From NCBI GenBank assembly GCA_022530585.1, contig CP092821.1, forward strand, positions 198,222-262,221: a stretch of DNA of 64,000 bases. The letters are read 5' to 3'. The stretch is from Candidatus Nealsonbacteria bacterium DGGOD1a (GTDB lineage Bacteria; Patescibacteriota; Minisyncoccia; Minisyncoccales; UBA5738). Made by a program: the position numbers and the translations under genes. Below are positions 7,360 through 62,210 of the stretch, in pieces. The notes below the pieces were generated by a model, which saw only the letters and a program-made list of their open reading frames with translations, had not been told where the DNA came from and ran no database searches. Position 1 is the first letter of the stretch; the number at the start of each line of letters is the position of its first letter.

Positions 7360-7461
7360 CTTGAATTATGAAACGCTTTGCATTCGGGGTCTATCCCTTG
7401 CGTAATCGCAAGGGTTAGACCCCTCTAAAGCATTTGCATTTAATGATTTCGCAATTCAAAG
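7360..7461. mobile_element. 102-bp palindromic MITE-like element, copy 1
   Basis: Terminal inverted repeats cttgaattatgaaacgctttg / gatttcgcaattcaaag. The central hairpin is ggggtctatcccttgcg-taatc-gcaagggttagacccc. A near-identical copy lies at 57395-57496. Confidence 0.6.
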
Positions 7462-7464
7462 AAT

Positions 7465-7626
7465 ATGGATATTTTATTTTGGTATGTTTTTGTTTCGATA
7501 TTCGCCGTCGGTATGATTGTCGGCAGTTTTTTGAATTGCTTGATCTGGCGATTGCATAATAATGAAAGCGCGCGGGGAGGGTTGACTTTGCAATTACTGT
7601 TTGCGCAATTAAAATACAGACAGTAA
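7465..7626 (+). pseudogene. orphan 5' fragment of prepilin peptidase gene (pilD remnant, 53 codons)
   Basis: MDILFWYVFVSIFAVGMIVGSFLNCLIWR... 7465-7574 matches 8621-8730 and includes a 73-nt exact run. After the homology ends it reads into unrelated sequence, with a stop at 7624-7626. Confidence 0.75.
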
Positions 7627-7642
7627 CACTATTTGTATTTGA

Positions 7643-8420
7643 ATGATACGGATGGAAAATAAAAAAATTGCATCATACGCTTTTATTGACGCTTCCAATC
7701 TGTTCTATGGCGGGGAGAAAAGTTTGGGTTGGAAAATAGATTACGAAAATCTTTTTGAATATTTAACGGAAAAATATTCAGTAAGAAAAGTTTTTTATTT
7801 TGGCGGCGCGGAAATCCATAAATTCAATTTTGACTATTTAAAAAATGATACCGTGCCGATTGCCGAATTGAAAAAATATCTTAAAAATGAAATCAAAACC
7901 GGCGGCAGTAAGTTAAATGAAGCGGATATGATATTATTAAGCCGGCATTTGCAGAGAGTTAAGTTCTATTCCAAGCTTGAGTCTTTTGGATATGAATTGC
8001 GGCTTAAACCCGTAAAATTATATTATCACGATAGTAGTACGGTTAAAAAAGCGAATTGCGATGTTGATATGGCCTTTTATTGAGTGCAATACCTCGGGGC
8101 TTTGCCCCGGGGTGCACCAAGAGGATTCCAAAGGGGTGCCCCCTTTGGTCGTCGTGCGGGGTTCATACCCCGCTCGACGAAATACATTTGGAAAATATAT
8201 TTTTGATTTGATGAAGGAAATGAACAATTTTGATAAAGCGATCATTCTTTCCGGCGATGGCGATTTTTTACCGGTTTTGAAATATTTGAAAGCGTGCGGC
8301 AAGGGAATAACCATATTATCCCGCGGCCCGAGAACCGCGCGCGAAATTCGGCAATTTGCCGGTTCTGATTTCAGGGATTTTACCAGGCTGGAAAGAATAT
8401 TGAAGTTTGACGGGAAATAA
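7643..8420 (+). pseudogene. NYN/LabA-like (PIN-related) nuclease-domain gene interrupted by a 118-nt insertion
   Basis: The N-part ends ...KANCDVDMAFY* at 8083. The C-part resumes as IFDLMKEMNNFDKAIILSGDGDFLPVLKYLK in another frame. Deleting 8081-8198 joins the two in frame. The motifs FIDASNL, CDVD and SGDGDF fit the NYN fold. Confidence 0.7.
8081..8198 (+). mobile_element. three-hairpin repeat element, copy A (inserted inside the NYN gene)
   Basis: Three hairpins: cggggc-ttt-gccccg, ccaaagggg-tgc-cccctttgg and gcgggg-ttcata-ccccgc. Linker aagaggattcc. Flanked by tat/tat. Copies at 18578-18690 and 55153-55267 share the same architecture. Confidence 0.6.
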
Positions 8421-8424
8421 ACTA

Positions 8425-8512
8425 CCGCGCGTCGTCAGGGTATTCTTGCGGAAAAGTTTGTTTCCCCGCCATTCATCCCCGGGGCAAAGCCCCGAGGTAT
8501 TCTGGCGGGTAA
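8425..8512 (-). repeat. partial/diverged copy D of the three-hairpin element (inverted relative to copy A)
   Basis: 8474-8498 is the exact reverse complement of the 25 nt aatacctcggggctttgccccgggg at 8088-8112. An atgaatggcgggg segment (cf. ttgatggcgggg) follows. The middle hairpin is missing. Confidence 0.4.
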
Positions 8513-8620
8513 ATAACAAAAAGCGGACATGCGAAATATCCGCTTCACGTTTAGTAAGCATATACTATCATTCGACAAGACATTGTCAATAGCGAGCGTA
8601 GCAAGCATTGTATAAACATT

Positions 8621-9460
8621 ATGGATTTTATTTTTTGGTATGTTTTTGTTTCGATATTCGCCGTCGGTATGATTGTCGGCAGTTTTTTGAATTGCTTGAT
8701 CTGGCGATCCTATAATAACGAAAGCGCGCTGGCCGGCCGGTCGTATTGCCCGAATTGCCGCCATAAACTGGCGTGGTTTGATTTGGTTCCTTTGTTCAGT
8801 TTTTTATTTTTGCGCGCCAAATGCCGTTATTGCGAAAAACCGATATCGTGGCAATATCCTTTGGTTGAGTTGGCAACCGGAATTCTTTTCGTCGCCGCGG
8901 CGCGGGCGTTCGCCTCCGGGATTTTTAACGGTTATCTGCCGGTGATTTCCGCGCTTGAGCTGTTGGCGTATTGGGCGATTTTGTCTTCGCTGGTTGTGGT
9001 GTTTGTCGCGGATTTGCGCTGGTATTTTATTCCCGACGGCGCGATCGCCGCGGGGATTTTTGGCGCCGCGGTTTTAACGATCGCGCGATTTTTTGAAAGC
9101 GATTTTATTTTTCACCGATTCGATTGGAACATAATTTTCAATCCGCTGTTGTCGGGGCTGTTCGCCGCGCTGTTTTTTCTGGCGATATTTTTGTTTTCGC
9201 GCGGAAAGTGGATCGGCTTTGGCGATGTCAAATACGCGCTTTTGATGGGATTGGCGCTTGGTTTTCCCGAGACTTTGCTGGCGCTGTTCCTTGCGAATTT
9301 TTTTGGTGCTATAATAGGTTTAGGATTGATCGCGGTTCGGCGCAAGAAGATGTCGTCGGAGATTCCTTTCGGGCCGTTTCTGGTTGGCGGAACGCTGGTC
9401 GCGCTGTTCTTTTCCGGTTCGATACTGAATTGGTATTTGTCGATAGGGATGCATAATTAA
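8621..9460 (+). CDS. pilD: prepilin peptidase / N-methyltransferase (A24 family)
   Basis: 279 aa. N-terminal Zn-finger-like CPNCRHKL...CRYCEKPISWQYPLVELATG, multiple TM helices, and the catalytic-Asp contexts ADLRWYFIPD and IGFGDVKYA. Confidence 0.9.
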   Translation: MDFIFWYVFVSIFAVGMIVGSFLNCLIWRSYNNESALAGRSYCPNCRHKLAWFDLVPLFSFLFLRAKCRYCEKPISWQYPLVELATGILFVAAARAFASGIFNGYLPVISALELLAYWAILSSLVVVFVADLRWYFIPDGAIAAGIFGAAVLTIARFFESDFIFHRFDWNIIFNPLLSGLFAALFFLAIFLFSRGKWIGFGDVKYALLMGLALGFPETLLALFLANFFGAIIGLGLIAVRRKKMSSEIPFGPFLVGGTLVALFFSGSILNWYLSIGMHN

Positions 9461-9576
9461 AAATTTAAAAATCAAAATGAAAAACGACAAATTAAAATAT
9501 TAAAATGTCGAATTTCAATTTTGTCATTTTCCATTTTGATTTTTACATTTTGCATTAAGCTTCATAAATAGGCGCG
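9461..9576. repeat. AT-rich palindromic intergenic module, 'AAATCAAAATG/TGACAA' dialect (P2)
   Basis: aaaaatcaaaatgaaaaacgacaaa ... ttttgtcattttccattttgattttt are long imperfect inverted arms spanning the whole pilD-to-minor-pilin spacer. Confidence 0.6.
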
Positions 9577-13091: not shown

Positions 13092-15584
13092 ATGGCGCCA
13101 GTTCGAAAATTATTTGATTTTGAAAATTTCAATAAAAAAACAGCGGGGGCGGTTTTGGCCGTTGCCGCGGTTTTTTGTTTCGCGTTTTTCGCCGCCGCGC
13201 GGGCCGAAGAAGATTGCGTTCCCAATTTCGTCCATAGCCGCTATGAGTGCGGCGACGCGGAAAAAGACGGTTGTAAAGGAACTTTGAAGGATATTTGGTG
13301 CGATACGGCTTGCGGCTCCGGTTGTACGGTTCATTCGCAAACCGCGTGCCAAGGATGGCAAAAATGCGACGCGGGCAAAGGGTCTTGCGCTTGCGCCGGA
13401 TCGTGTTTGGCAAAAAAAGAATATCAAGCAAAAAACGACCGATATTACGATAAACCGTTTTGCGATCATGGCAAACCGCCGGATGCGTGTGGCAATAATG
13501 GCCCCGACGACCGCACTATGCCGCTGAAATTCGATTGGGAAAACAACGCTCTTTTTGGCGGCGCGGGCAATATTCAATCCTATACGATAGAAATTGACAA
13601 CGACAATTACCAGCTTCAGCAGGAAGGCGAATTCAAGAAAGTTTTGCCTTATGACCATTTTGTTTCGACGATCGACGGCGGAACCTGTTTTTTTAATTCT
13701 TCTTCGGAGATAACTTGGCGGGTTAAGCCGTGCTGCAAGGCCGATGGAACGGAATGCGGCAGTTATAAAGACTTCAAATTTTCCACGACCTCGGCACCGG
13801 AATTGATTGCTCCTTATGACGCGGATTGGGTATATGGCAAATGCACTTCATGGATATATAATCCCACGCCTCCGCCGCAGTTATGCCAAAATGTGCTGCA
13901 ATCCGAACCGGGCGATTGGGTTCTGCGGTGCCAGCCGTTTTGCGTTTCGAACAGTTATTCTTTCAAGGGGATGCAATTAAGGTGGTGTGCGGCCAAATTA
14001 CCGGCCGAATACCAGACATCGGATAAAGTGGCATATGCCAAATCGTACAAGCTGATGGTTTTATCCGATGAAAAAGAGAAAAATGCTCTGAAATGCCATC
14101 CGCTTTTGAGTTCAACCGGCAAATGCAAAGCTGAAGATGTTATTGTCGACCCGCAATTGCCGGATAATTCGGTTGTTAAGTATCCGGAGCAGAGCCGCCA
14201 GCATTTCGCGCTTTTCACGCGCGATCGGCTTTATGACTGGTCGGTGCAAACTTGTTTTGACGATATTGCCTATAAATGCGGCGGCGGCAGTCAATCATGG
14301 AAATTTACAACCAAGATCGAATTGATCGGAGTTCCGGGAGCGGTTTCGCCCAAAAACGATCCGAACGGAATTGAACCGGTGGGCTTGCCGCTGGCGATAA
14401 CATGGACTATTCCGGACGGCGCGAATTCATTCGTTTATCAGGCTTCTTTTTTACCGGGCAGCAAAAAAGTCGACTGGCCGACGGTTCCGAATGAAAAAAT
14501 GAATGCCAATGAAAAAAAATTATTCGATGCGGATAATTTAAAGCCCGACACGGAATACAAGTGGCGAGTTAAAGCTTGCGCTTATTTCAATTCTTCCGAT
14601 TGCGACAGCTGGTCCGAATGGTTTGTTTTCCGTACCACGGGCCGGCCGCCCAAGCCCGAAACGATGAAAGTCGAAGGCAATGTCCCGGCGATTTTTTCCT
14701 GGGAAGCGGTACCCGGCGCGAAATCCTACAATTTCAGCCTTTTCAAATCCAGCGGCGAAACCAAAACCGCGCTTTTAAACGATATTGAATTTTTGAAAAA
14801 CCCGAAATACACTCTTGGGTATCCCGACATTGGCCAGGCGCAAAGTTATTCGTGGAAAGTCCAGACCTGCGCTCATTCCGATGGCACGGTTTGCGGCGCG
14901 TGGAGCGGCGAAAAACCGTTCACCGCTTCCGAGCTGCAGGGGGCGGCCGATTTGAAGCCCGGGGCCGGTTCCACGGTCTGGGCCGATCAAGTATCGCAAA
15001 ATATATCCTGGGGAGAAGTTAAGGGCGCAGTTGCCTACCATTATGTTTTGGAATTTGTTTCATCGGCGGAAAAGCAAGAATGTGTTCAGGAAAAGATCGA
15101 CAAAATAATTTCGCGGACATCGGATGTCGCGGAATTAAAATGCCTGGGCGGTTACCGTTTGGCGGTGCGGCCTTGCGCCGATGCCGGATGCGAAAGCTCC
15201 GGTCCGGAAAGCGAAACAGATTTTATTTTGTCCCAGCATATTCCGGAAAACAAATCCGCGTTCGCGCTTTGCGGCGTCGGTTATGATGATCCGCAAACCG
15301 CTTGGAACGATCGGGAAGCTTGTCAGCCCAAGCATTTGCTGCTGCTGGCAAAAGTTTTTATTGATTTTCTGCTTTTTAAATTATCGGTGTTTCTTTTGCC
15401 GATTCTGGCATTGATCACGGGCTTGATTTTCTATTCGCCGCTGGGCGGTCAGGATATCATGGGAAAAATCAAAATGATGTGGAAAGCGATCGGCATCGGT
15501 TACGCGCTTATGATTTTTGCCTGGATTATCGTCGGAATTTTAATGCAAATCGCCGGTTTTTCCGGGAGTTGGTGGAGGTTGTAG
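13092..15584 (+). CDS. secreted multi-FN3-like Cys-containing protein with C-terminal two-helix VirB2/TrbC-pilin-like membrane domain
   Basis: Sec signal (..FAAARA|EE). Five repeats end in [YT]xW[RKS]V[KQ]xC...C..W..F.T (TWRVKPC, YDWSVQTC, YKWRVKAC, YSWKVQTC, YRLAVRPC). FN3-type starts such as FSWEAVPGAKSY. C-terminus LPILALITGLIFYSPLGGQDIMGKIKMMWKAIGIGYALMIFAWIIVGIL. It starts 4 nt after the previous gene. Confidence 0.7.
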   Translation: MAPVRKLFDFENFNKKTAGAVLAVAAVFCFAFFAAARAEEDCVPNFVHSRYECGDAEKDGCKGTLKDIWCDTACGSGCTVHSQTACQGWQKCDAGKGSCACAGSCLAKKEYQAKNDRYYDKPFCDHGKPPDACGNNGPDDRTMPLKFDWENNALFGGAGNIQSYTIEIDNDNYQLQQEGEFKKVLPYDHFVSTIDGGTCFFNSSSEITWRVKPCCKADGTECGSYKDFKFSTTSAPELIAPYDADWVYGKCTSWIYNPTPPPQLCQNVLQSEPGDWVLRCQPFCVSNSYSFKGMQLRWCAAKLPAEYQTSDKVAYAKSYKLMVLSDEKEKNALKCHPLLSSTGKCKAEDVIVDPQLPDNSVVKYPEQSRQHFALFTRDRLYDWSVQTCFDDIAYKCGGGSQSWKFTTKIELIGVPGAVSPKNDPNGIEPVGLPLAITWTIPDGANSFVYQASFLPGSKKVDWPTVPNEKMNANEKKLFDADNLKPDTEYKWRVKACAYFNSSDCDSWSEWFVFRTTGRPPKPETMKVEGNVPAIFSWEAVPGAKSYNFSLFKSSGETKTALLNDIEFLKNPKYTLGYPDIGQAQSYSWKVQTCAHSDGTVCGAWSGEKPFTASELQGAADLKPGAGSTVWADQVSQNISWGEVKGAVAYHYVLEFVSSAEKQECVQEKIDKIISRTSDVAELKCLGGYRLAVRPCADAGCESSGPESETDFILSQHIPENKSAFALCGVGYDDPQTAWNDREACQPKHLLLLAKVFIDFLLFKLSVFLLPILALITGLIFYSPLGGQDIMGKIKMMWKAIGIGYALMIFAWIIVGILMQIAGFSGSWWRL

Positions 15585-15653: not shown

Positions 15654-18509
15654 ATGATTAGACTTGGAAAAAATATAGGATTTGCCATTTTGATTTCCGT
15701 GCTTGCAATCGGCGGTTGTTGGCACTTTTTCAACTTTCAAAATGATTCCTTGGTTGAGGCTGACAGCTTGCAGGGTTGCGCCAGCGGTGAAGCCTGCCCT
15801 TCAGGTACGGCTTGCAACAATACGGTCTGTTGCCCGTCCGGTTATTGCGGTTGGGGCGATAATGTTTATTTTGTCCGCGAATGCGTTGCCAGCGGCCAAA
15901 TTCGAGAAAATTCCTGGGCGAGTTTGATTTGCCGTTCCGGGATATGGAAAGTGCGGTTGAATGGCTGGGGTTGCAATAATTCGGCTTGGGGCGGTTGCGA
16001 TGAGGGATGGTGCCAAACTTTCGGCGATGCCGGTTTTTGCCGAAGTTGCGCTTTTGACTCTGGCTTGGCTCAAGGTTGTGCCAACGGTGAAGCATGTCCT
16101 TCGGGAACTTTATGCAATAATACGGTTTGCTGCCCTTCGGGTACTTGCGGTTATGGAGACGGCCTTGTTTTTGGTCGCCAATGCGTGGCTAGCGGCGAAA
16201 TAAGAGAAAATCTTTGGGGCCGGCAGATATGCCGCAACGGGGTTTGGAAGACCTTGGTGGGCGGCTGGGGTTGTGATCTTTTTGGGGAGTGCGAATCCGG
16301 AAGTTGCCAAAAGATTGGCGGTTACCATTATTGCATATCTTCCTTGCCGTTTTCTTCCGCGTACACTTCAACCGCTTACAATACGGGAATGTATTGCCAG
16401 GGGACTTGCCGTACTTGCGCGTCAGAGGGCAATGTTTGCGGCAATATGAGCGATAATTGCGGCGGTACGATTTATTGCGGCGATTGTTCTTCCGGCCAAA
16501 CTTGCGCTTCCGGCCAATGCGTTTCTAGTTGTGTCAATGATTGTTCTTCCAGCGGCGCCAAGCAATGCGGCGGCAACGGTGTCCAAACCTGCGGCAATTA
16601 CGATGCCGACAGCTGTTTGGAATGGAGTGCGGCGGTTGCCTGTTCTTCGGGACAAATCTGTGCGTCCGGCCAATGCGTTTCTAGTTGTGTCAATGATTGT
16701 TCTTCCAGCGGCGCCAAGCAATGCGGCGGCAACGGTGTCCAAACCTGCGGCAATTACGATGCCGACAGCTGTTTGGAATGGAGCGCGGCGGTTGCCTGTT
16801 CTTCGGGACAAATCTGTGCGTCCGGCGTTTGCGTTGCCAGTAGCGACGATTGTACCGCCGAGTATTCCAAAAAATGTTATAACGGCAATGTTTATTGGTA
16901 TGATTCTTGCGGAGTTCGCGGCGATGTTTACCAGAATTGCGGTAATAGCGGGTCGACCTCAAATTATCAATGCGGCGGTAATTGGCTTCAGCAGGAAACC
17001 GTTGTTAGAGATTGCGCCGCCGGCGCGTGCACTCAAGATTCATCATGGAATAATGTTCAGGATTGCGCTTTGAGCGGCAAGATATGTAAAAATGGCGTTT
17101 GTATTGCCGCCTGTGTCAATGATTGTTCTTCTAGCGGCGCCAAGCAATGCGGCGGCAACGGTGTCCAAACCTGCGGCAATTACGATGCCGACAGCTGTTT
17201 GGAATGGAGCGCGGCGGTTGCCTGTTCTTCGGGACAAATCTGTGCGTCCGGCGTTTGCGGCGTTAAAGACGCGCTTGCGCCTGTAATTTCAGGTTTGGCG
17301 CCTTCGGGGAAAGCATACAATTCCAGCGTGGTTTTGGTTGCGACCACCAACGAGGCCGCGGATTGCCGTTATAGCTGGTATGATAGAAGTTTTGACCAGA
17401 TGACTTTACCGTTCAAAACTTCAAACAAGCTTTATCATTCGGCGCCGGTATCTTTGAGTTCTTACGGCAAGTACACTTATTATGTGCGTTGCAAAGACGC
17501 TTTCGGCAATGCCAATCAGATACCAAGCAAAATATCGTTTGATTATGTTTCGGCAACCGGTGCCGCCACTATTGCCGCGCCAAATATTCAAGCGTCTTCA
17601 ACTGTTTCATCCACCGCGGGTCTCGCGGATAAAACTCCGGCGGCGATTTCCGGTCTGGCGCCATCGGGCGCCATCACCAATGCCACGACCGTTATTTCTT
17701 GCGTTACCGGCGAAAAAGCGACTTGCAGGTACGATATTGCCGATACGGATTACGATTCGATGGAAAATACGATGGATACCGCCGCCGGCGTTCATCAGAG
17801 CAAAACAATAACATTGTCCAGTCCCGGAAATTACAATTACTATGTCCGTTGCAAAGACGCGGCGGGCAACAAGAACGCCGATTCGGTTAAAATCAATTTT
17901 GATTACGCGCCAGCTTCAAAAGTTCCGCCGGTAGTTTCCGAATTGCAACCTGCCAGCCCGGTTTATCAGAAAAGCGTAATGCTGACGGCGGTTACCGATA
18001 AGGCGGCTCAATGCCGCTGGTCAACCCGGGATCAGGATTTTGACGCGATGCCGGGACAATTTTCGGCAACCGATGGCCAAAACCAGCAAGCGATAGTGGA
18101 TTTAAACGATTACGGCCGATACGATTATTATGTGCGGTGCAAAGATGACGCGGGCGGCAAGGCCGCGGTTTCTTCGGTGATTAGTTTTGAATATAAAAAT
18201 CCGGAGCTGGAAGCCGCGGTTTTAAATGAAGTCGCCATTCCCGCTCAACAAGAACCTGTCGCTTGCGGAAAACCGGTTGCCGGCGCCAGCGACGGCGCTT
18301 GCAGCGCCGCGGTTGATTGTGTTTGCGATCCGGACTGCTCGGCCGGCGGCGGCGATGATCCTGATTGCGCCGCCGCGGCTGATAATTCAAGCGCCGCCGG
18401 CAATTTGTTGATTATCGCTATTCCGGTTGTCCTGATCGTTGTTGTCGTCGCGTTGATCGCGGCGGTGAAAAAAAGACGCGGCGGGGAAGACGGCGGCGAA
18501 GAAAACTAA
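15654..18509 (+). CDS. giant Cys-rich surface protein: shared N-terminal Cys modules, 52-aa Cys repeats, 3x Ig-like repeats, C-terminal TM anchor
   Basis: N-terminal signal/possible lipobox LAIGGC. Residues ~70-270 are near-identical to the 10824 protein. Four copies of C(V/x)NDCSSSGAKQCGGNGVQTCGNYDADSCLEWSAAVACSSGQICASG. Three repeats of SGLAPSG...CRY...Y.YYVRCKDxxGN. C-terminal LLIIAIPVVLIVVVVALIAAV-KKRRGGEDGGEEN. Confidence 0.75.
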   Translation: MIRLGKNIGFAILISVLAIGGCWHFFNFQNDSLVEADSLQGCASGEACPSGTACNNTVCCPSGYCGWGDNVYFVRECVASGQIRENSWASLICRSGIWKVRLNGWGCNNSAWGGCDEGWCQTFGDAGFCRSCAFDSGLAQGCANGEACPSGTLCNNTVCCPSGTCGYGDGLVFGRQCVASGEIRENLWGRQICRNGVWKTLVGGWGCDLFGECESGSCQKIGGYHYCISSLPFSSAYTSTAYNTGMYCQGTCRTCASEGNVCGNMSDNCGGTIYCGDCSSGQTCASGQCVSSCVNDCSSSGAKQCGGNGVQTCGNYDADSCLEWSAAVACSSGQICASGQCVSSCVNDCSSSGAKQCGGNGVQTCGNYDADSCLEWSAAVACSSGQICASGVCVASSDDCTAEYSKKCYNGNVYWYDSCGVRGDVYQNCGNSGSTSNYQCGGNWLQQETVVRDCAAGACTQDSSWNNVQDCALSGKICKNGVCIAACVNDCSSSGAKQCGGNGVQTCGNYDADSCLEWSAAVACSSGQICASGVCGVKDALAPVISGLAPSGKAYNSSVVLVATTNEAADCRYSWYDRSFDQMTLPFKTSNKLYHSAPVSLSSYGKYTYYVRCKDAFGNANQIPSKISFDYVSATGAATIAAPNIQASSTVSSTAGLADKTPAAISGLAPSGAITNATTVISCVTGEKATCRYDIADTDYDSMENTMDTAAGVHQSKTITLSSPGNYNYYVRCKDAAGNKNADSVKINFDYAPASKVPPVVSELQPASPVYQKSVMLTAVTDKAAQCRWSTRDQDFDAMPGQFSATDGQNQQAIVDLNDYGRYDYYVRCKDDAGGKAAVSSVISFEYKNPELEAAVLNEVAIPAQQEPVACGKPVAGASDGACSAAVDCVCDPDCSAGGGDDPDCAAAADNSSAAGNLLIIAIPVVLIVVVVALIAAVKKRRGGEDGGEEN
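16512..16823 (+). repeat. tandem 156-nt (52-codon) coding repeat, two near-identical units; third unit at 17112-17258
   Basis: ggccaatgcgtttctagttgtgtcaatgattgttcttccagcggcgccaagcaatgcggc... restarts at 16668. A related module lies in the 53119 gene. Confidence 0.85.
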
Positions 18510-18577
18510 AAAAAGATCCGTGTTTTTCAGGCGTTTGTTTTTGCCATACCCTCTTGCGAATGAGAGTTTGAGGTTTA

Positions 18578-18690
18578 TTCTTTTTATACCCCGTCGGCTT
18601 GCCGCGGGGGACAAAAAGAATGAGGATTCCAAAGGAAGCATCTTTTGGTTGATGGCGGGGTTAATACCCCGACATCAATGCATTTTTTAT
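18578..18690 (+). repeat. three-hairpin repeat element, copy B
   Basis: ttctttttataccccgtcggcttgccgcgggggacaaaaagaatgaggattccaaaggaagcatcttttggttgatggcggggttaataccccgacatcaatgcattttttat. Located between the giant protein gene and the SEDS gene. Confidence 0.6.
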
Positions 18691-22619: not shown

Positions 22620-22748
22620 GTGAAAATTTAAAATTTAGAAATCAAAAATCAAAATGACAATGTAAAATTGAAAAATTATTCAATTCGATGATTCTCAATT
22701 TTAAAATGTAATTTTCAATTTTGATATTTTATTTTTTAATTTATTATT
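22620..22748. repeat. AT-rich palindromic intergenic module, P2 dialect
   Basis: gaaatcaaaaatcaaaatgacaatgtaaaattgaaaaatta ... aaaatgtaattttcaattttgatatttt, ending at the rpoB start codon. Confidence 0.55.
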
Positions 22749-25700
22749 ATGGCGGCGCTTAAAACAAAAAATTTCGGCAAAGCAAATGTATCGCTGCCTT
22801 TGCCGTATTTGCTCGTGCTTCAAAAAGAAAGCTGGGATATGTTCTGGGGAAACGATTTAAAAGAGCTTTTTACCGAGATTTCGCCCATTCGCGATTACAC
22901 CGGCAAAGAGCTTGAGCTTTGGATCGAGGATTTTAAACTCGACGAAACCAAATATAAAAACGATCTTGAAGCGCGGATGAACAATGATTCCTATGAAGCG
23001 TCGATCCGGGTTAAGGTCAGGCTGGTTAATTTAAAAACCAAGGAATCCAAGACGCAGGAAATTTTTCTGTGCGATTTTCCGTTAATGACCGAAAGGGGAA
23101 CCTTTATCGTCAATGGCGTGGAGCGCGTTTGCATTTCCCAGTTGATCCGTTCGGCGGGCGTGTTTTTTTCGGCGCAAAACATCGGCGGAAAAAACTTTTT
23201 TGGCACTAAAATTATTCCCAATCGCGGTTCCTGGCTGGAGTTGGAAACCGCCCATACCGGCTTTATCGGCGTGAAAATCGACCGCAAGCGCCGCGTTCCG
23301 GCGACGACTTTGTTGCGAGCCTTCGGCATTGACAACGACAACGCGATCAAAGAGCTTTTCGCCGATGTTAACAAAGGCGAGGTTGATTTTATCGAGGAAA
23401 CCATTAAAAAAGATCCGACCCACAACCAGGCCGAGGCCTTGGTGGAAATATACCAGCGTTTGCGGCCCGGAGATCTGGCCACCGCCGACACGGCCAAGGA
23501 ATTGATTTGGAATATGTTCTTTAATTTTGAACGGTATGACCTTTCCAAAGTGGGGCGCTGGAAGATGTGGAAGCGTCTGCCGCAACTCAAAGCCAAAGAC
23601 AAAACCGGCGATAAAGTTGAAATGAAAGACCGGGTTTTAACCGTGGACGATATCGTCGCGGTGATCAAAGAAATTATTCGTTTGAACAACGATCCTTTGG
23701 CAAAACCCGACGAAATCGATCATTTGGGCAATCGCCGCGTGCGGACTTTGAATGAGCTTTTGGTTAACCGCCTGCGGTTGGGTTTTATGAGAATGGAGCG
23801 CATCATCAAAGACCGGATGTCGACTTTGGAAGTTGTCGATTTGTCGCCGATGCAGTTGATCAACCCCCGGCCGGTGATGGCGGTGATCAAGGAATTTTTT
23901 TCCAGTTCGCAATTATCGCAGTTTATGGACAACGAAAATCCGCTGTCGGAACTTGAACACAAACGCCGTCTGGCGGCAACCGGCCCGGGCGGTTTGACCC
24001 GCGAACGCGCGGGATTTGAAGTGCGCGATGTCCAGCCTTCGCATTACGGCCGCATTTGTCCGATCCAAACTCCGGAAGGCCCCAATGTGGGCTTGGTGGG
24101 CTATTTGGCGTCTTACACCAAGATCAATAATTTCGGTTTTCTGGAAACGCCGTATTATAAAGTTACCAAAGGCAGAGTGACCGATGAACTGGTATATATG
24201 ACCGCGGACGAAGAAGAAAAATACAATATCGCCACCGCGATCGCGCCTTTGGACGAAAAGAACAATATCATTCCCAAAAAACTGGAAGCCAGAATGAAGG
24301 GCGAACCGGAAATTTGCGCCAAGGAAGATATTGATTATATTGATGTTTCGCCGCAGCAAATTCTTTCGGTGGGTACTTCGCTGATTCCGTTTTTACAGAA
24401 CGACGATGCCAACCGCGCGTTGATGGGTTCTAATATGCAGCGGCAATCGACGCCGCTGGTTAAGCCCGATCCGCCGCTGGTGATGACTGGCAGCGAGGAA
24501 AGGATTGCCCATGATTCGGGCCATATTTTGTTGGCCGAGGGCGCGGGCGTGGTCACCGAAGTTGACGGCAGCCATATCACCGTCAAATACGATGACAAGG
24601 AACTGGGCGAAAAAACTTATTATTTGAGAACATTTTTGAGAACCAATCAATATACTTGTTTCCATCAGAGCGCGATTGCCAAAAAAGGCAAAAAAGTGAA
24701 AAAGGGCGAAGCGATGTGCGATGGCGGTTCGATTGTCAACGGCCATCTGGCTTTGGGCCACAATATTCTGGTGGCGTTCACTTCATGGCGCGGCGGAAAT
24801 TTTGAAGACGCGATTTTGCTTTCGGAGAAATTGGTCGCCAACGACAAATTCACCACGATCCATATGGAGAATTTCGCCTGCGATGTGCGCGAAACCAAAC
24901 TGGGTCCGGAAATGACCACCTATGATATCCCCAATGTCTCCGAGGAAAAACTTAAAGATTTGGACGAAGAAGGAGTGGTTCGTATCGGCGCCGAAGTCAA
25001 GCCCAATGATATTTTGGTGGGCAAGATTTCGCCCAAGGGCGAACAGGAGCTGACCGCCGAAGAGCGTTTGTTGCGCTCGATTTTCGGCGAGAAAGCCAAA
25101 GATGTAAAAGACACTTCGTTGATGATGGAACATGGCAAGCGCGGCCGCGTGGTGGGAGTTAAGGTGTTTTCGCGCGAACAGGGCCACAAGCTTGAGCCGG
25201 GCGTGATCAAAAGGATCGAAATTGAAATCGCGGAATTGAGAAAAGTGCGCGCGGGCGACAAGCTTGCCGGACGCCACGGGAACAAAGGCGTTATTTCGCG
25301 CGTTTTGCCGATAGAAGAAATGCCCTATTTGGAAGACGGCACGCCTGTGGATATGGTGTTAAATCCGATGGCGGTGGCGTCCCGTATGAATTTGGGACAG
25401 ATTTTGGAAACGCATTTGGGTTACGCGGCGCATGAATTGGGTTATCACGCGGTTACGCCGTCGCTTTCCGGCGCCAAGGAATCCGATATCAAAGTGGAAT
25501 TAAAAAAGGCCGGATTGTCCGAAGACGGCAAGGAAAAACTTTTTGACGGCCGGACCGGTTTGCAGTTTCCGGGAAAAATTACCGTTGGTTACATTTATAT
25601 GATGAAACTTATCCACATGGTCGAGGATAAGATACATACCCGCAGTATTGGACCGTATTCGCTGATCACGCAGCAGCCTCTGGGAGGCAAAGCGCAGTTT

Positions 25701-39033: not shown

Positions 39034-39543
39034 TTAGAAAGGGATGTCCTTTACATTGATGTCGCCGTCTTCTTCGATGATCGGGATATCGGTTTCCTCG
39101 GGCGCGGATTTGGCCGCCGGATTTGCTTCGCCATAACCTTGGGCGGAGGCGGGTTTCTGGTTGTAATTCGCCGGTGTTTGCGGAGATTGATAGCCGCCGC
39201 TTGATTCATTGTTGCGCGGGCCCAATTGCATCGATTCGGCGATGATTTCGGTGCGATAGCGTTTATTGCCCGCCTGATCTTGCCAATCCCGCGTTTGGAG
39301 CCGGCCTTCAAACATTGCCAGAGATCCTTTTTTCAGATACTGTCCGGCGATTTCCGCCAGCCGTCCAAAGAGAACCAGATTGTGAAATTCGGTTTTTTGC
39401 TGGCGCTGGTTGGTGTTTTTGTCGACATAGAACCGGTCGGTCGCCAGACCGAAATTCGCCACTTGCTGGCCGCTGGGCATGACTCGGATTTCCGGATCGC
39501 GCGTGAGCCGGCCGATCAAGAATACTTTGTTTAGATTCATCAA
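39034..39543 (-). CDS. ssb: single-stranded DNA-binding protein
   Basis: OB fold [19 protein letters not shown]...[14 protein letters not shown], a Gly/Pro/Gln-rich linker, and the acidic tip [18 protein letters not shown]. Confidence 0.92.
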
Positions 39544-39670
39544 ATTAAAATCAAAATGTAAAAATCAAAATGAAAAATGACAATGCAAAATTAAAAATTA
39601 TTAAATTTTAAAATTTGCCCATTTCACATTTTAAATTGTAATTTTGATTTTTGATTTTTCAATTTACAAT
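39544..39670. repeat. AT-rich palindromic intergenic module, P2 dialect
   Basis: aaaatcaaaatgtaaaaatcaaaatgaaaaatgacaatgcaaaattaaaaatta ... cacattttaaattgtaattttgatttttgatttt, inside the rpsF-ssb-rpsR operon. Confidence 0.6.
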
Positions 39671-40282
39671 TTACTTTAGGATTTCGTCCAGTTTTTCCTC
39701 AATGTCGCGCAATTCGGCTTTGATTTTTGTCCGGCGTTTGGGTTTGGCGGGTTTCGCTTCTTCGGAAGCGGGTTTTTCTTCCTTGGTTTCTTCTTTGGGA
39801 ATTTCGATTTTTTCTTCCTTGGTTTCTTTAATTTCTTTTTCCGCAATTTCCGCCGCGGGTTTTTCCGCCTTTTTTTCTTCCGCCGCGGGGAAGCTTTGCG
39901 CTACGGTTGTTTCGATTCCCGCGGACGCGGTTCTTGCCGCGGGCCGTTCGCGCCGCGGTTCTCTTTTCAGCTTTTCCGGGTCATACCAAATTACCAAGCC
40001 GCGCAGTATTTCGGGGATCGTGTCGGTTTCTTTTTTAAAATCAACCGCGAACGCCGGTTCGCTCTGAAATAGGATGGTATTAACATAGGCCGCATCTTGT
40101 TTTTTAATGCGGTAAGCCAGCCTTTTTTTATAGGATTTGGGCAGGTCGGTGACAGTGCCGTTTTTGGCGGTTATCAGCGCGACCAACTTATCTTGAAGCT
40201 TTTTGGCCTCATCCTCGGGCATATCCTGCCGGGTCAGGTAAGTGAACTCGTAATGCTTCATCATATTGCTTTTTTCGGCCAT
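39671..40282 (-). CDS. rpsF: 30S ribosomal protein S6 with long Lys/Glu-rich C-terminal extension
   Basis: MKHYEFTYLTRQDMPEDEAKKLQDKLVALI... forms the S6 core (~100 aa). About 100 aa of KE-rich low complexity follow. The start may be the MMKHYE Met. Confidence 0.85.
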   Translation of the reverse strand: MAEKSNMMKHYEFTYLTRQDMPEDEAKKLQDKLVALITAKNGTVTDLPKSYKKRLAYRIKKQDAAYVNTILFQSEPAFAVDFKKETDTIPEILRGLVIWYDPEKLKREPRRERPAARTASAGIETTVAQSFPAAEEKKAEKPAAEIAEKEIKETKEEKIEIPKEETKEEKPASEEAKPAKPKRRTKIKAELRDIEEKLDEILK

Positions 40283-49611: not shown

Positions 49612-49908
49612 ATGAAAATATCTCCGTGCGCCGATAATATATTGATCGAATCGATCAAAGGCGAAGAAAAAACCAAATCAGGCATATTTTTACCGGAAAC
49701 CGCTTCAAAGGAACGGCCCGAACAGGGCAAGGTGATTGCCGCGGGTCCGGGCAAAAAAAATAAAAAGGGCGAAATAATCCCTGTTTCAATAAAAGTGGGC
49801 CAGAAAGTTTTGTTTTCAAAATACGGCCCCAACGAAATCAAAGTCGACGGCAAAGAATATTTGATCGCCAAAGAAGACGATATACTTGCGATAATCGAAG
49901 AAAATTAA
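49612..49908 (+). CDS. groES: co-chaperonin GroES
   Basis: 98 aa. Motifs P..D.ILIE....EEKTKSGIFLPETA, GKVIAAGPG and KVGQKVLFSKYG. Confidence 0.95.
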   Translation: MKISPCADNILIESIKGEEKTKSGIFLPETASKERPEQGKVIAAGPGKKNKKGEIIPVSIKVGQKVLFSKYGPNEIKVDGKEYLIAKEDDILAIIEEN

Positions 49909-51654
<1,746 letters not shown>

Positions 51655-53118: not shown

Positions 53119-55086
53119 ATGATTTTATTTATGCGCTCGCTGTTTTTGCTATCGTTGGTTTTTTTTGGGTTTTCGGCGCTGAATGCCGATGCCGCCAGCG
53201 GTTATTTTATCAAGGTAAACACCCACACCCATACGGCATGGGATAATACTAATGGTTACGGGTCCGATGGGCGAAACACTTTGGCGGAAATGGTTGATGC
53301 TTACAAATCAAAGGGATATAATTTGCTGGTGATCACCGATCATAATTCCTATGATGGAACAAAAACAAGCAGTTTGACTCAAGGTTATTTTGTAAATCGG
53401 GTCAATCCTTTTACGCCTTGCGATTCTTACAGCGATCCGGCGAACAAGTTTTTGTGCATCAGCGGCGAAGAGCTGACTCCCGGCATTGGAGTTTTCGGCG
53501 ATCATGCTCATCATGCCTTATTGGTGGGAGGAAAAAAACCATGGACAAATTTCGATGATAACGCGGATAATATCAAGAAAGCTTTCAGTTCGACGATATC
53601 TCAAGGAGGTTTTGCGGTTATTGCCCATCCAAGCTCAAAAAATCCGCTTTATGATCACAAAGGATTCAAGTTGGCGGACAATGAAACATATTGGACGCTT
53701 CCCGAATTAAAGAGTTTTGATTATACCGCGATGGAAATTAGCGCCACTACATCTGTCGCGTGGTGGGACGAGGTTCTGAAGTCCAAGCTTGACAGAAAAG
53801 TTTTTGGAATTCTTGGCGACGACGCGCACAGCGCGGCGGCGGCGGGGAAAAAATGGATACAGGCGTATGTGGCGGAATTGTCAAAAGAAGCGTTTCTAAA
53901 CGCGGTCAATCAGGGATACTTTTATTCTTCTACCGGGCCAAGTATGAATAGCGACGCGTTTTCATTTAAATGCGACAATGGCACAACTTACAATATGGGC
54001 CAAACCATTGGAACCATTGAATGCGGTAAAGGAAAATTCAAAGCCGGCGTGGTTGCCAGTGCCTCAAACGCTTTCGTTAAAAATATCAAAATCATTAAAA
54101 ACGGAGCGGTGATTTATAATAAAACTGATTGCCCAAAAGCTCAACAGTGTTCGTTTGAGTTTCCTCAAACAATAAAGGATGCCGCTTATTACCGTATGGA
54201 AGCCACGGATTCGGCGGGTAAATCATTATGGAGCAATCCAATCTGGTCGGTGGTTGAGTCCGCCCGTGTTGCCGTGTGCGCCAATGATTGCGCTTCCGGT
54301 ACCAAGCAATGCAGCGGCAACGGCGTCCAGACCTGCGGCAATTACGATACCGACAGCTGTCTGGAATGGTCTTTGCCAACCCCTTGCTCCTCCGGCCAGA
54401 TTTGTTCCTCGGGTTCTTGTTCCGCCGCCAGTTGTACCGGAGAATGTTCCGAATCCGGTACCAAGCAATGCAGCGGCAACGGCGTCCAGACCTGCGGCAA
54501 TTACGATACCGACAGCTGTCTGGAATGGAGCGCGGCGGTTAATTGCGCTTCCGGCCAGACCTGCTCCCAGGGCGTTTGCGTTGCCGCGTGCGCCAATGAT
54601 TGCGCTTCCGGTACCAAGCAATGCAGCGGCAACGGCGTCCAGACCTGCGGCAATTACGATACCGACAGCTGTCTGGAATGGTCTTTGCCAACCCCTTGCT
54701 CCTCCGGCCAGATTTGTTCCTCGGGTTCTTGTTCCGCCGCCAGTTGTACCGGAGAATGTTCCGAATCCGGCGCCAAGCAATGCAGCGGCAACGGCGTCCA
54801 GACCTGCGGCAATTACGATACCGACAGCTGTCTGGAATGGTCTTTGCCAACCCCTTGCTCCTCCGGCCAGATTTGTTCCTCGGGTTCTTGTTCCGCCGCC
54901 AGTTGTACCGGAGAATGTTCCGAATCCGGCGCCAATAGCAGCGATTATGATATCGATAGCGCTGATCAGGTTTGTCCCAACGGCGTTTGTTCAAATTTGG
55001 ATTATATACAATCGCAGATCAATGTGATACAAAAAGCAATCAGCCGGCTCTTTGACCTGTTGGCAGCATTGAGAGAGGGCCGTTAA
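53119..55086 (+). CDS. secreted PHP-domain phosphoesterase fused to 4.3 copies of the 52-aa Cys-rich module
   Basis: Signal ..SALNADA|AS. PHP motifs KVNTHTHTAWD, LLVITDHN, AIAHP and GDDAH. Then CANDCASGTKQCSGNGVQTCGNYDTDSCLEWS... repeats, and a C-terminal amphipathic helix. Confidence 0.7.
   Translation: MILFMRSLFLLSLVFFGFSALNADAASGYFIKVNTHTHTAWDNTNGYGSDGRNTLAEMVDAYKSKGYNLLVITDHNSYDGTKTSSLTQGYFVNRVNPFTPCDSYSDPANKFLCISGEELTPGIGVFGDHAHHALLVGGKKPWTNFDDNADNIKKAFSSTISQGGFAVIAHPSSKNPLYDHKGFKLADNETYWTLPELKSFDYTAMEISATTSVAWWDEVLKSKLDRKVFGILGDDAHSAAAAGKKWIQAYVAELSKEAFLNAVNQGYFYSSTGPSMNSDAFSFKCDNGTTYNMGQTIGTIECGKGKFKAGVVASASNAFVKNIKIIKNGAVIYNKTDCPKAQQCSFEFPQTIKDAAYYRMEATDSAGKSLWSNPIWSVVESARVAVCANDCASGTKQCSGNGVQTCGNYDTDSCLEWSLPTPCSSGQICSSGSCSAASCTGECSESGTKQCSGNGVQTCGNYDTDSCLEWSAAVNCASGQTCSQGVCVAACANDCASGTKQCSGNGVQTCGNYDTDSCLEWSLPTPCSSGQICSSGSCSAASCTGECSESGAKQCSGNGVQTCGNYDTDSCLEWSLPTPCSSGQICSSGSCSAASCTGECSESGANSSDYDIDSADQVCPNGVCSNLDYIQSQINVIQKAISRLFDLLAALREGR
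54277..54935 (+). repeat. tandem coding repeats (~156-nt unit, 312-nt higher-order period)
   Basis: tgcgccaatgattgcgcttccggtaccaagcaatgcagcggcaacggcgtccagacctgcggcaattacgataccgacagctgtctggaatgg recurs at 54277 and 54589. tgtaccggagaatgttccgaatccgg units alternate with it. Confidence 0.85.
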
Positions 55087-55152: not shown

Positions 55153-55267
55153 ATAAAAAAATACATTGATGTCGGGGCATTAACCCCGCCATCAACCAAA
55201 GGATGTTTCCTTTGGAATTCTCATTCTTTTTGTTCCCCGCAGCGAGCTGACGGGGTATAAAAAGAAT
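55153..55267 (-). repeat. three-hairpin repeat element, copy C
   Basis: The reverse complement reads ttctttttataccccgtcagctcgctgcggggaacaaaaagaatgagaattccaaaggaaacatcctttggttgatggcggggttaatgccccgacatcaatgtatttttttat. Confidence 0.6.
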
Positions 55268-55275
55268 CAAAAAAT

Positions 55276-57394: not shown

Positions 57395-57496
57395 CTTTGA
57401 ATTACGAAACGCTTTGTATTTGGGGTCTATCCCTTGCGTAATCGCAAGGGTTAGACCCCTTCAAGGCATTTGAATTCAATGGTTTCGTAATTCAAG
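57395..57496. mobile_element. 102-bp palindromic MITE-like element, copy 2
   Basis: ctttgaattacgaaacgctttgtatttggggtctatcccttgcgtaatcgcaagggttagaccccttcaaggcatttgaattcaatggtttcgtaattcaag. Most positions are identical to 7360-7461. Confidence 0.6.
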
Positions 57497-60944: not shown

Positions 60945-62210
60945 ATGGTTTTCGCCCTCCCCAAAATTTTAATGTTCGGTTGGGAATTTCCGCCTCACAA
61001 TTCCGGCGGATTGGGTGTGGCCTGCCAAGGTTTGACCGGCGGTTTGGCGTCGTTGGGAGCAAAAATAACTTTTGTTTTGCCCAAAAAAATCAATTGCCAG
61101 CCGGCGCCGTGCCGCTTTGTTTTCGGGGATGCATGGACCGGCAAAAAAAGATATTTGTCCGGAGTTGATATGATCGCGGTTAATTCGCCGCTGTCGCCCT
61201 ACCTGACCGCGGAGAGTTATTCGCGGGAGATTGATCGCTGGGGAGAAAAAGATTTCACGCCGCGGCATTCAATCTGGCGCGAAGATTTGGTGGGGGAAGC
61301 GATGCGCTACGGCGAGATTGCCGAAAATATCGCGCGAGTCGAAGATTTTGATGTGATCCATTGCCATGATTGGCTTTCTTTGCCCGCGGGGATGGCCGCC
61401 AAAAGGGCTTCGGGCAAGCCGCTGGTGTTCCATATCCATGCCACCGAATACGACCGGGTGGGCGAAAACGGGTTGAATCGCGACATTTGCCTTATCGAAA
61501 AACGGGGGTTTGAAATTGCCGACGCGGTGGCCGCGGTGAGCGATTATACCAAGCGGCGTGTTGTCGACTGCTATGGCGCCGCGCCGGAAAAAATCACGGT
61601 GGTGCCCAACGCCGTCAATCACGCGGAATACGCGCCGGCGGTTTCCGACGAATTTTTAAAATTGAAAAAAAACGGCAAAAAAATCGTGTTGTTCGTGGGG
61701 CGGCTCACATTCCAAAAGGGGCCGGATTATTTTTTGAAAGCCGCGCGCGCCGTGGCGCGGATTGATAAAAGCGCGATGTTTGTTTTTTCCGGATCGGGAG
61801 ATATGGAGCGGTGGCTGATCGAAGAAGCCGCGCGGCTGGGATTGGCCGACCGAGTGGTTTTTGCCGGATTCTTGCGCGGCGCGGATTTGGCGCGTCTTTA
61901 CAAAGCCGCGGATTTATATGTGATGCCGTCGGTGTCCGAACCGTTCGGGCTCACTTCGCTTGAAGCGCTGGCCAGCGGCGCGCCGATATTGGTTTCGCGT
62001 CAGTCGGGAGTGGGAGAAATGGTTTCCAATTGCTTGAAGTGCGATTTTTGGGACACAAATCAAATGGCGGCAAAAATTCTGGCGGCATTGCGCTATTCGG
62101 CGCTGGGCGAAGAATTGCGCCAAAACGGATTGGTTGAAGTTAAAAAATTCGACTGGGTCGATTCGGCAAAAAAATGCTTGGGAATTTACCAAAGCGTTAT
62201 GACCGCTTAA
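60945..62210 (+). CDS. glycosyltransferase (glycogen/starch-synthase-like, GT4/GT5 type)
   Basis: 421 aa. N-terminal FPPHNSGGLGVACQGL and C-terminal PSVSEPFGLTSLEALASGAPILVS (EX7E-type). Confidence 0.8.
   Translation: MVFALPKILMFGWEFPPHNSGGLGVACQGLTGGLASLGAKITFVLPKKINCQPAPCRFVFGDAWTGKKRYLSGVDMIAVNSPLSPYLTAESYSREIDRWGEKDFTPRHSIWREDLVGEAMRYGEIAENIARVEDFDVIHCHDWLSLPAGMAAKRASGKPLVFHIHATEYDRVGENGLNRDICLIEKRGFEIADAVAAVSDYTKRRVVDCYGAAPEKITVVPNAVNHAEYAPAVSDEFLKLKKNGKKIVLFVGRLTFQKGPDYFLKAARAVARIDKSAMFVFSGSGDMERWLIEEAARLGLADRVVFAGFLRGADLARLYKAADLYVMPSVSEPFGLTSLEALASGAPILVSRQSGVGEMVSNCLKCDFWDTNQMAAKILAALRYSALGEELRQNGLVEVKKFDWVDSAKKCLGIYQSVMTA

Follow-up and report, generated by a model that had tools for sequence, protein, structure and literature searches.

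Palindrome-associated transposable elements (PATEs) are derivatives of IS200/IS605 transposons that lack the transposase gene tnpA, and in canonical PATEs the left and right hairpins match. Transposons of the IS200/IS605 class move by a 'peel-and-paste' mechanism, in which insertion takes place 3′ of a transposon-adjacent motif (TAM, such as TTTAT or TTGAT) without target duplication, and the end carries a transposon-encoded motif (TEM) (PMC10055086). Here, we describe a three-hairpin repeat in a 64,000-nt stretch of the genome of Candidatus Nealsonbacteria bacterium DGGOD1a (contig CP092821.1, positions 198,222–262,221), a member of the candidate phyla radiation (CPR, or Patescibacteria). This whole stretch is called the window, and coordinates refer to it unless a locus label (such as L179) is given. 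The repeat is a real and statistically solid family of mobile DNA elements, for which the exact insertion, the target, the homology of the left end and the presence of TnpA are direct observations. It is probably a non-autonomous, protein-less, PATE-like element of the IS200/IS605 type that is mobilised by TnpA as a single strand.

Like PATEs, the element contains no open reading frame (ORF), measures ~100–130 nt, inserts 3′ of a conserved pentamer without target duplication, has a left-end hairpin homologous to that of a resident IS200 with a Y1 TnpA in trans on the contig, and forms coexisting subfamilies that insert beside each other. Unlike PATEs, it has an extra outer stem around hairpin 1 and a conserved, covarying module (the GAGGAUUCC linker with hairpins 2 and 3) that is common to phyla in which hairpin 1 is unrelated or absent. 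A resemblance to IS200/IS605-derived PATEs had been proposed in an earlier note made from the letters of this DNA, and it is borne out by the exact insertion at TTNAT and by the homology of hairpin 1 to IS200 left ends.

Three copies in the window and the insertion in a NYN gene

Direct reading of the loci and a covariance model place three full family members in the window, two on the plus strand and one on the minus strand.

8081–8207, plus strand: copy A (A-type), 127 nt, inside a NYN gene; cmsearch 100.2 bits
18579–18690, plus strand: copy B (B-type), 112 nt, intergenic, between a surface-protein gene and ftsW/rodA; cmsearch 92.9 bits
55153–55265, minus strand: copy C (B-type), 113 nt, intergenic; cmsearch 86.3 bits

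All three had been recognised in the earlier note and are real, while the ends given there (8198 for copy A, a start at 18578 for copy B and 55267 for copy C) are corrected here. The model was run with filters off across all 64 kb, its match to copy A spanning 8077–8191, and the next-best match after A, B and C reached 19.7 bits, so that the window holds exactly three members (86.3–100.2 bits). Copies B and C form a 115-nt inverted repeat with 91% identity in a repeat search of the window, and the 5′ end of copy C falls 11 nt before the start codon of lemA, a gene of the opposite strand. The same contig carries a B-type and then an A-type element head to tail past the window end (L179, 14978–15217), and a further B-type copy just upstream of the window (L180, 8804–8918, minus strand). 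Six copies thereby occur in ~85 kb of contig, or ~1 per 15 kb.

Copy A splits a gene for a NYN (LabA/DUF88) nuclease, whose two parts flank it together with the target motif.

7643–8080, plus strand: N-terminal part of the NYN gene, ending ..DVDMAFY and followed by the TGA of copy A
8076–8080, plus strand: TTTAT target motif (TAM-like), directly 5′ of copy A, within the NYN coding sequence (TTT TAT, F Y)
8208–8420, plus strand: C-terminal part of the NYN gene, LMKEMNNFDK.., in frame after removal of 8081–8207

The joined halves retrieve 2969 homologues at E ≤ 1e-10 in a protein database search, the closest being intact ~209-aa CPR proteins with ~70% identity. When aligned, the intact homologues read CDVDMAFY-LMKEK and the only gap is the 127 nt of copy A, which is inserted exactly between TAT (Y) and TTG (L). 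Both boundaries are fixed by these homologues and by other A-type copies (L148, L128 and the L179 copy from 15091 onward). A 118-nt copy A, ending at 8198, was rejected; it would leave 'IFD', an insertion relative to all intact NYN homologues. The idea of a TAT..TAT take-off and landing, based on that 118-nt boundary, is likewise ruled out by the homologue alignment. At the DNA level, the intact homologue in L176 reads GCTTTTTAT|TTAATG at the insertion site (the bar marks the junction), and because this empty site carries TTTAT, the motif is a pre-existing target that lies outside the element. In related genomes (L172–175), an intact NYN gene stands directly upstream of prepilin peptidase and pilin genes, and this locus is the orthologous empty site for copy A.

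The interrupted NYN gene is undecayed, with 2 deviations at otherwise invariant columns versus 0–5 in intact homologues, and the insertion of copy A is present in every dataset with this strain. Both observations, and the stop codon (TGA) and stable hairpin directly after TAT, would suit a copy A that is spliced from the mRNA like a tiny intron, or jumped over by programmed ribosomal bypass from TAT-TGA to a codon further downstream, with NYN remaining functional. We regard this as highly improbable: 127 nt is far under any self-splicing intron and far over known bypass gaps, the true junction is TAT|TTG rather than TAT..TAT, most copies are intergenic and in either orientation, and a recent insertion or precise excision by TnpA is a simpler account of the intact halves. 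Precise TnpA excision of copy A would restore NYN with the junction GCCTTTTAT|TTGATGAAG, and the excision circle would carry a right end–left end junction reading ..TTTTTGAT|TGAGTGCAAT...

Other repeats surround the NYN gene. The NYN region is bracketed, at 7458–7576 and 8614–8732, by two direct copies (119 nt, 92% identical) of the 5′ end of the prepilin peptidase gene, the upstream one forming a 53-aa truncated ORF (7465–7626). Because L172–175 have the intact NYN gene immediately before the peptidase gene, the NYN–peptidase locus of the window is rearranged. A separate 99-nt repeat (90% identical; 7361–7459 and 57397–57495), unrelated to the three-hairpin family, encloses a GC-rich hairpin between long terminal inverted repeats (TTGAATTAYGAAAC...GTTTCGYAATTCAA), the classic anatomy of a miniature inverted-repeat transposable element (MITE), and one of its copies adjoins the duplicated peptidase fragment.

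Covariation of the three-hairpin structure

Members of the family share a single order of hairpin 1 (P1), GAGGAUUCC linker, hairpin 2 (P2), hairpin 3 (P3) and tail. P1 comprises an outer stem that starts at the element's first base and encloses a GC-rich inner hairpin, P2 is CCAAAGG..CCUUUGG, P3 adjoins P2 with zero spacer, and the tail (GAAAYAC...) terminates in an AT-rich motif. The layout set out in the earlier note, of hairpin 1, GAGGATTCC linker, hairpin 2 (CCAAAGG/CCTTTGG) and hairpin 3, was confirmed by direct reading, as were the changes cited there between copies B and C (CGG/CCG to CAG/CTG in hairpin 1 and G:T to G:C in hairpin 2). To that description we add an outer stem on each of hairpins 1 and 3.

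8084–8117, plus strand: copy A hairpin 1, with outer stem GTGCA/TGCAC pairing 8084–8088 with 8113–8117
8092–8112, plus strand: inner, IS200-type hairpin of copy A hairpin 1, CCTCGGGG-CTTTG-CCCCGGGG
8121–8127, plus strand: copy A linker GAGGATT, single-stranded, running into the CC of hairpin 2
8128–8148, plus strand: copy A hairpin 2, CCAAAGGGG-TGC-CCCCTTTGG
8149–8180, plus strand: copy A hairpin 3, TCGTCG-T-GCGGGG-TTCATA-CCCCGC-T-CGACGA, without a spacer from hairpin 2
8181–8207, plus strand: copy A 3′ tail, AATACATTTGGAAAATATATTTTTGAT, with a final TTGAT end motif (TEM-like)
18574–18578, plus strand: copy B 5′ flank TTTAT
18579–18619, plus strand: copy B hairpin 1
18622–18628, plus strand: copy B linker
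18629–18648, plus strand: copy B hairpin 2
18649–18678, plus strand: copy B hairpin 3, followed by a tail that ends ..TTTTTTAT
55266–55270, minus strand: copy C 5′ flank TTGAT, read on the minus strand

A TTTAT on the 5′ side had been reported for all three copies; this holds for A and B, and copy C follows TTGAT.

Forty-five diverse copies were aligned with MAFFT, and their RNAalifold consensus was compared with shuffled (500) and slid controls. The consensus recovers the inner P1 stem, P2 and P3, with 93.1% of cells paired versus 80.5% in shuffles. Double-change cells number 156 versus 53.5 ± 6.6 in shuffles (0 of 500 reach this value) and 13–48 in slid controls, although the copies are related and these changes are therefore not independent events. 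Covarying pairs make up 6 of the 6 pairs of inner P1 and 9 of the 12 of P3, whose closing U–A pair is invariant. The GAGGATT linker is invariant in all 45 aligned copies, a constancy partly fixed by the search pattern. P2 was held constant by that exact pattern, so its variation is visible only in copies found by the model, among which L029 and L066 carry the compensatory variant CCAGAGG/CCUCUGG. Since G.U/U.G cells outnumber A.C/C.A cells (47 versus 20), the folding strand is the drawn strand, with TTNAT on its 5′ side. Strong covariation across such diverse copies upholds the earlier suggestion of selection on a folded structure, and it fits RNA and single-stranded DNA alike. In some subfamilies, the arms of hairpin 1 recur in P3 with their order swapped (12 nt in L052, 9 nt in L075 and 8 nt in B); a systematic re-use was rejected, being weak family-wide (mean longest shared word 5.8 nt within versus 5.3 nt between copies).

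These patterns also bear on a different account, in which the conserved part (linker GAGGAUUCC, P2, P3 and tail) is a structured non-coding RNA and the IS200-like hairpin 1 is only its vehicle in CPR; candidates would be a regulatory RNA carried by the transposon, a guide-like RNA that reads through into the flank in the manner of TnpB omega RNAs, or an element of mRNA ends. Invariant single-stranded junction nucleotides beside covarying helices, and the excess of G.U over A.C on the modelled strand, are what such an RNA would display, but a folded single-stranded DNA would be expected to covary and to tolerate G.U just as much. The orientation of copies relative to transcription is mixed, Rfam holds no match to them, and the loops are constant within subfamilies while the flanks differ, with no copy-specific segment matching its flank. 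A guide segment particular to each copy is ruled out by these subfamily-constant loops. We consider the RNA account unlikely and return to it below with the distribution of the module.

IS200 left ends, target motif and strand preference

Searches with three different TnpA queries found no tnpA in the window, in keeping with the earlier note, which had seen neither tnpA nor tnpB there. By extending past the window from its last gene, we found an intact Y1 transposase gene within an IS200-like element of the same contig, and a relic of such an element lies beside the NYN gene.

L179 19224–19825 (window-equivalent ~70168–70769): intact IS200-like element, ~600 nt, same contig
L179 19338–19787: intact Y1_Tnp (PF01797) gene, 149 aa, 6.3 kb past the window end
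8421–8512, minus strand: relic IS200-like left end, with its hairpin at 8477–8497

The contig TnpA shares 99% identity with the IS200/IS605 transposase of Ca. Nealsonbacteria DGGOD1a, whose genome is closed at 1.16 Mb, and close homologues of the contig TnpA lie on many short contigs. With its matching left-end hairpin, this gene is the kind of Y1 transposase that the earlier note had suggested seeking elsewhere in the genome. The left end of the contig IS200 reads TTGAT|AATGTTTTC-ACCCTGTCGGTCTTGCCGCAGGGAAC and its right end GCCCTGCGGTCTTGCCGCAGGGTCATTTAC|, in which the right hairpin is followed by CATTTAC. Copy B begins TTTAT|TCTTTTTAT-ACCCCGTCGGCTTGCCGCGGGGGAC, and copies B and C together read TT(T/G)AT|TCTTTTTAT-ACCCCGTC(G/A)GCT(T/C)GC(C/T)GCGGGG(G/A)AC. 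An A(T/G)ACC foot, the stem, a CTTG loop and a bulged T are common to hairpin 1 of the element and the contig IS200; B and C share the bulged T with the IS200 left end, from which their stems differ by compensatory changes. Copies of the L075 type nearly reproduce this left end, through the outer stem into the linker, and the family model itself detects it with 22 bits (E = 1e-5 locally).

In the contig IS200, hairpin 1, GGTAGGGGGATATCCCCCTACC and CACGCGCGAAAGCGCGTC follow one another ahead of the tnpA start, and this left end and leader give z = -4.9 when folded as single-stranded DNA. The same three-hairpin left end and leader are present in the CPR relatives L182, L183 and L187/188, and no earlier description of this arrangement was found in the literature searched. 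A Shine–Dalgarno-like AAGGGGGTGG (AAGGAGGTGG in L182) is located ~75 nt upstream of the annotated tnpA start, between hairpins 1 and 2.

A tblastn search of 1.12 Mb of loci and the window, with an IS608 TnpA sequence as query, returned two matches only, L050 and L137, each preceding a copy by <600 nt and oriented like it. L050 encodes an intact 142-aa protein (Pfam Y1_Tnp, E = 3e-28), and the tnpA gene of L137 is decayed. The L050 element and three relatives have the left end (T/C)T(T/A)AT|..CAGA(A/G)..CC-ACGGGCTTGCCCGTGG-(A/G)TGAATG, followed by tnpA, and the right end CCACGGGCTTGCCCGTGG-GTATCTAC|. Within L050 4711–5425, a three-hairpin copy lies between brnT (toxin) and its CopG-type antitoxin gene (brnA), where it replaces the last brnT codons, with the intact IS200-like element 460 nt upstream.

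The stretch at 8425–8512 had been listed in the earlier note as a partial copy of the repeat. As a truncated copy it is rejected by the model (11.9 bits, E = 0.63; match 8397–8512, minus strand), and it shares with the three-hairpin family only a 25-mer of hairpin 1 of copy A. Lengthwise it aligns instead to four IS200 left ends, through target, CAGAATACC foot, hairpin and ATGAATG, and it reads GTTAT|..CCAGAATACC-TCGGGGCTTTGCCCCGGGG-ATGAATGG.., making it a relic IS200 left end and not a member of the repeat.

The autonomous CPR IS200 elements (L179, L182, L183 and L187, with a second clade of L050 and L151–153) share with the miniature element the TTGAT/TTTAT/CTAAT target, the left-end foot and hairpin, and the three-hairpin order of left end and leader; their terminal motifs, TTTAC and TCTAC, may have counterparts in several of its subfamilies. 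They differ from it in length (~600 nt), in carrying tnpA, in their leader hairpins 2 and 3 (GGTAGGGGG..CCCCCTACC and CACGCGC..GCGCGTC) and in a right-end hairpin 6–8 nt from the end. In layout, the miniature element parallels the left end and leader of its presumed partner IS200 joined to a short right terminus.

A Y1 enzyme on the contig would also be compatible with an extragenic repeat of the repetitive extragenic palindrome or bacterial interspersed mosaic element (REP/BIME) type, kept by a domesticated REP-associated Y1 transposase (RAYT) rather than a mobile IS200. REP/BIMEs resemble the element in being short, structured, mostly intergenic, modular mosaic repeats linked to a Y1 (HUH) enzyme; some JGI annotations name homologues of the contig TnpA 'REP element-mobilizing transposase RayT', the GC-rich relatives treated below sit in hairpin arrays, and a single-hairpin element cut on both sides is the RAYT mode. 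Yet the contig TnpA gene, as in a mobile IS200, lies between a left and a right hairpin that match each other, with ends TTGAT and TTTAC, and its close homologues on many short contigs fit a repeated insertion sequence. Copies of the element also lie in coding sequence (NYN and a membrane-protein ORF) and between brnT and brnA, and no head-to-head doublets (REPINs) were seen, the analysis covering ~85 kb of this genome. We find a RAYT-kept repeat improbable.

Across the family, the 5′ flank varies among TTTAT, TTGAT and TTAAT within subfamilies while the element remains constant, and one subfamily follows TTTA(A). The 3′ ends are as follows.

B-type: ..TTTTTAT
A-type and L100-type: ..TTGAT or ..TCGAT
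'AAATCTGTAAC' type: ..TTTTA(A)
L075 type: ..GTATTTAC
JAZDOL type: ..AATTTAC

The IS200 right termini GTATCTAC| and CATTTAC| resemble the ends GTATTTAC| and AATTTAC| of several subfamilies, the A type having TTGAT and the B type TTTAT in this place. In L179, an A-type copy (15091 onward) sits right after the terminal TTTAT of a B-type copy (14978–15090), so a B-type end can serve as an A-type target. Insertion is thus 3′ of TT[T/G/A]AT, as for PATEs, exact at NYN and without consistent duplication, and targets and ends carry the hallmarks of IS200/IS605 peel-and-paste elements (PMC10055086).

The junctions were also weighed for a MITE of a DDE (cut-and-paste) transposon that duplicates a 2–3-bp AT-rich target (AT/ATT), as A, B, C, L010, L029, L039 and L148 have AT(T) at each of their two junctions. 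The subfamilies ending in TTTAC or TTTAA rule this model out, because such ends cannot duplicate their TTNAT or TTTA 5′ flanks, which excludes a general target duplication. The two junctions of L044 differ (ATT versus ATC), and the conserved TT upstream of AT is one-sided, unexpected for a symmetric target. The element has no terminal inverted repeats, its 5′ end pairing with an internal segment rather than with the 3′ end; no duplication is consistent across subfamilies, and hairpin 1 is homologous to IS200 left ends. We therefore hold a DDE origin to be very improbable.

Of 95 loci, 60 have the top strand of the element on the G-rich strand (p = 0.013), as do 49 of the 72 with |GC skew| > 0.05 (p = 0.003), which is the direction expected for insertion into the lagging-strand template; within the window, copies A and B fit this orientation and copy C does not. 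The genes flanking the copies are oriented, relative to the element, ++ in 23 cases, -- in 17, +- in 9 and -+ in 8. These mixed orientations, which agree with the earlier observation that orientation is not fixed, mean that the repeat is not a terminator or leader of one orientation. Copies B and C are intergenic and several GC-rich relatives start right after stop codons, as might befit an intrinsic terminator or cis-regulatory hairpin cluster that merely looks repeated, but no U-tract directly follows the hairpin, copy A lies inside a gene, and more than 110 near-identical to diverged copies have sharp boundaries at the target motif. We attach practically no weight to this explanation, which the orientation and insertion data have effectively refuted already.

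Under the PATE-like reading, TnpA acting in trans would excise the folded top strand as single-stranded DNA during replication, and the excised strand would be pasted 3′ of another TTNAT site. Hairpin 1 would form the left-end binding site for TnpA, with the 5′ flank in the TAM role and the 3′-terminal pentamer in the TEM role. Hairpins 2 and 3, which would correspond in position to the two leader hairpins of autonomous CPR IS200, are together with the GAGGAUUCC linker a candidate substitute for the right-end hairpin, or may act at the RNA level.

The wider family and the P2–P3 core

Scanning with the exact pattern yielded 39 loci in GTDB representative genomes and at least 108 in JGI metagenomes, and cmsearch on 100 loci identified 111 copies, six of them outside the reach of the exact pattern. 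The family thus numbers more than 110 copies in metagenomes and metagenome-assembled genomes of CPR bacteria. CPR-type copies come from Minisyncoccales, Saccharibacteria and other Patescibacteria and form many subfamilies. The element has no coding capacity, and clustering of the ORFs within 3 kb around 39 and then ~150 copies gave no recurrent neighbour gene, the adjoining genes being housekeeping genes. With Rfam 15 at gathering thresholds, only tRNAs pass in the window and in 16 loci. In E-value mode, 8040–8560 around copy A gives no match with E < 1; the Rfam check proposed in the earlier note accordingly returns no family for the window copies. A blastn search of the GC-rich core against 72,556 plasmids gave no match, and a full-text literature search gave no relevant report for the core sequence or for a CPR repeat, PATE or MITE. 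The genome paper of Ca. Nealsonbacteria DGGOD1a mentions 39 transposases and not the three-hairpin family.

Some individual copies are unusual. In L058 (977–1113), a copy of a tail-less subfamily stands in frame and stop-free inside a 503-aa membrane-protein ORF, to which it adds ~33 residues (..FGQTPMSIGVKNEKRIPKEDTPLVAPTDIGAK..), reminiscent of Rickettsia palindromic elements (RPEs). RPEs are likewise 100–150-nt structured repeats able to sit within genes; unlike them, copy A is out of frame with an immediate stop, most copies of the family are intergenic, and the link to a transposase is evident. Copies in L033 (3206–3355) and L052 (3046–3172) contain ~30-nt insertions, one in hairpin 1 and one in hairpin 2, which may be nested insertions or hairpin expansions. 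The window also holds a third repeat family, AT-rich palindromic intergenic repeats of AAAATCAAAATG/TTTTGATTTT-type units (9450–9560, 22620–22750, 39540–39680, 49900–50005, 62204–62334 and 63548–63700), and 156-nt (52-codon) tandem repeats in large surface-protein ORFs (16485–17222 and 54268–54999; 63–99% identity across loci), which are probably repeated Ig-like domains.

Several observations weigh against derivation of the repeat from IS200/IS605. Unlike in PATEs, no right-end hairpin matches the left one: P3 differs from it in sequence and lies 12–31 nt from the end, whereas the left and right hairpins of autonomous IS200 are near-identical and the right one is 6–8 nt from the end. Hairpins 2 and 3 of the miniature element are unlike those of autonomous IS200 in sequence, and no autonomous insertion sequence with the exact GAGGATTCC-CCAAAGG core was found in ~190 loci (three TnpA queries) or at the ends of eight IS200 relatives. 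Copies of the A and B types carry AT(T) at either junction, which for these types considered alone is compatible with a 2–3-nt duplication, and the strand bias is moderate (68%) and confounded by gene orientation. Lastly, the core GGGATTCCAAAGG..CCTTTGGTGGGGTGCGGGGCAAAGCCCCGC occurs within genome-specific multi-hairpin repeats of non-CPR genomes (L004–L042) from Clostridia, Alphaproteobacteria, Actinobacteria, Chlamydiota, Myxococcota and Lentisphaerae, where it lacks an IS200-like hairpin 1 and sometimes any hairpin 1. Its presence in distant phyla counts here because an IS200 deletion derivative does not predict such a spread.

The GC-rich relatives often begin right after a stop codon, and they sit in hairpin arrays. 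A few viral contigs also contain the core (L154–L170); these are GC-rich-type matches, and their context is uninformative. That the core is found in so many phyla points either to frequent horizontal transfer or to a function not yet recognised. It also favours the structured non-coding RNA considered above, inasmuch as the P2–P3 module is found in many phyla without an IS200-like hairpin 1, as in L126, which begins with GAGGATTCC immediately behind a stop codon. A Clostridiales relative weakly resembles the Clostridiales-2 RNA motif (RF02937), with 19.5 bits (E = 0.026) against a gathering score of 58.6. The two-hairpin layout and G-rich junctions of that motif resemble the non-CPR P2–P3 relatives; the match is sub-threshold, and the window copies give none.

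PATEs that bear the omega RNAs of TnpB or IscB are a known precedent for such an RNA, with structured transposon-end RNAs and a TAM of the TTTAT/TTGAT type (Meers et al. 2023, PMC10055086). In contrast to these, the partner insertion sequence of the three-hairpin element carries tnpA only. Neither tnpB, iscB nor any recurrent gene lies beside the ~150 copies, no genome-wide tnpB search having been made, and no copy matches an omega-RNA or HEARO family of Rfam.

It is doubtful, in our estimation, that the core represents an undescribed and widely distributed structured nucleic-acid module in its own right. If it did, it could be a transposon-borne regulator or guide-like RNA, an element that permits expression of the genes it interrupts, the undecayed NYN gene for instance, or a new module for single-strand DNA recognition that replaces the right-end hairpin.

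For the PATE-like reading, which we prefer, the novelty lies in an unusually structured family, the IS200/IS605 class itself being known. The host is a CPR bacterium with a tiny genome, yet this element reaches ~1 copy per 15 kb in 85 kb, and its insertions split a conserved NYN nuclease gene and, in related genomes, separate a toxin–antitoxin pair. The family provides a compact test system for end recognition by Y1 transposases without a right-end hairpin, and a marker for strain-level variation in CPR populations.

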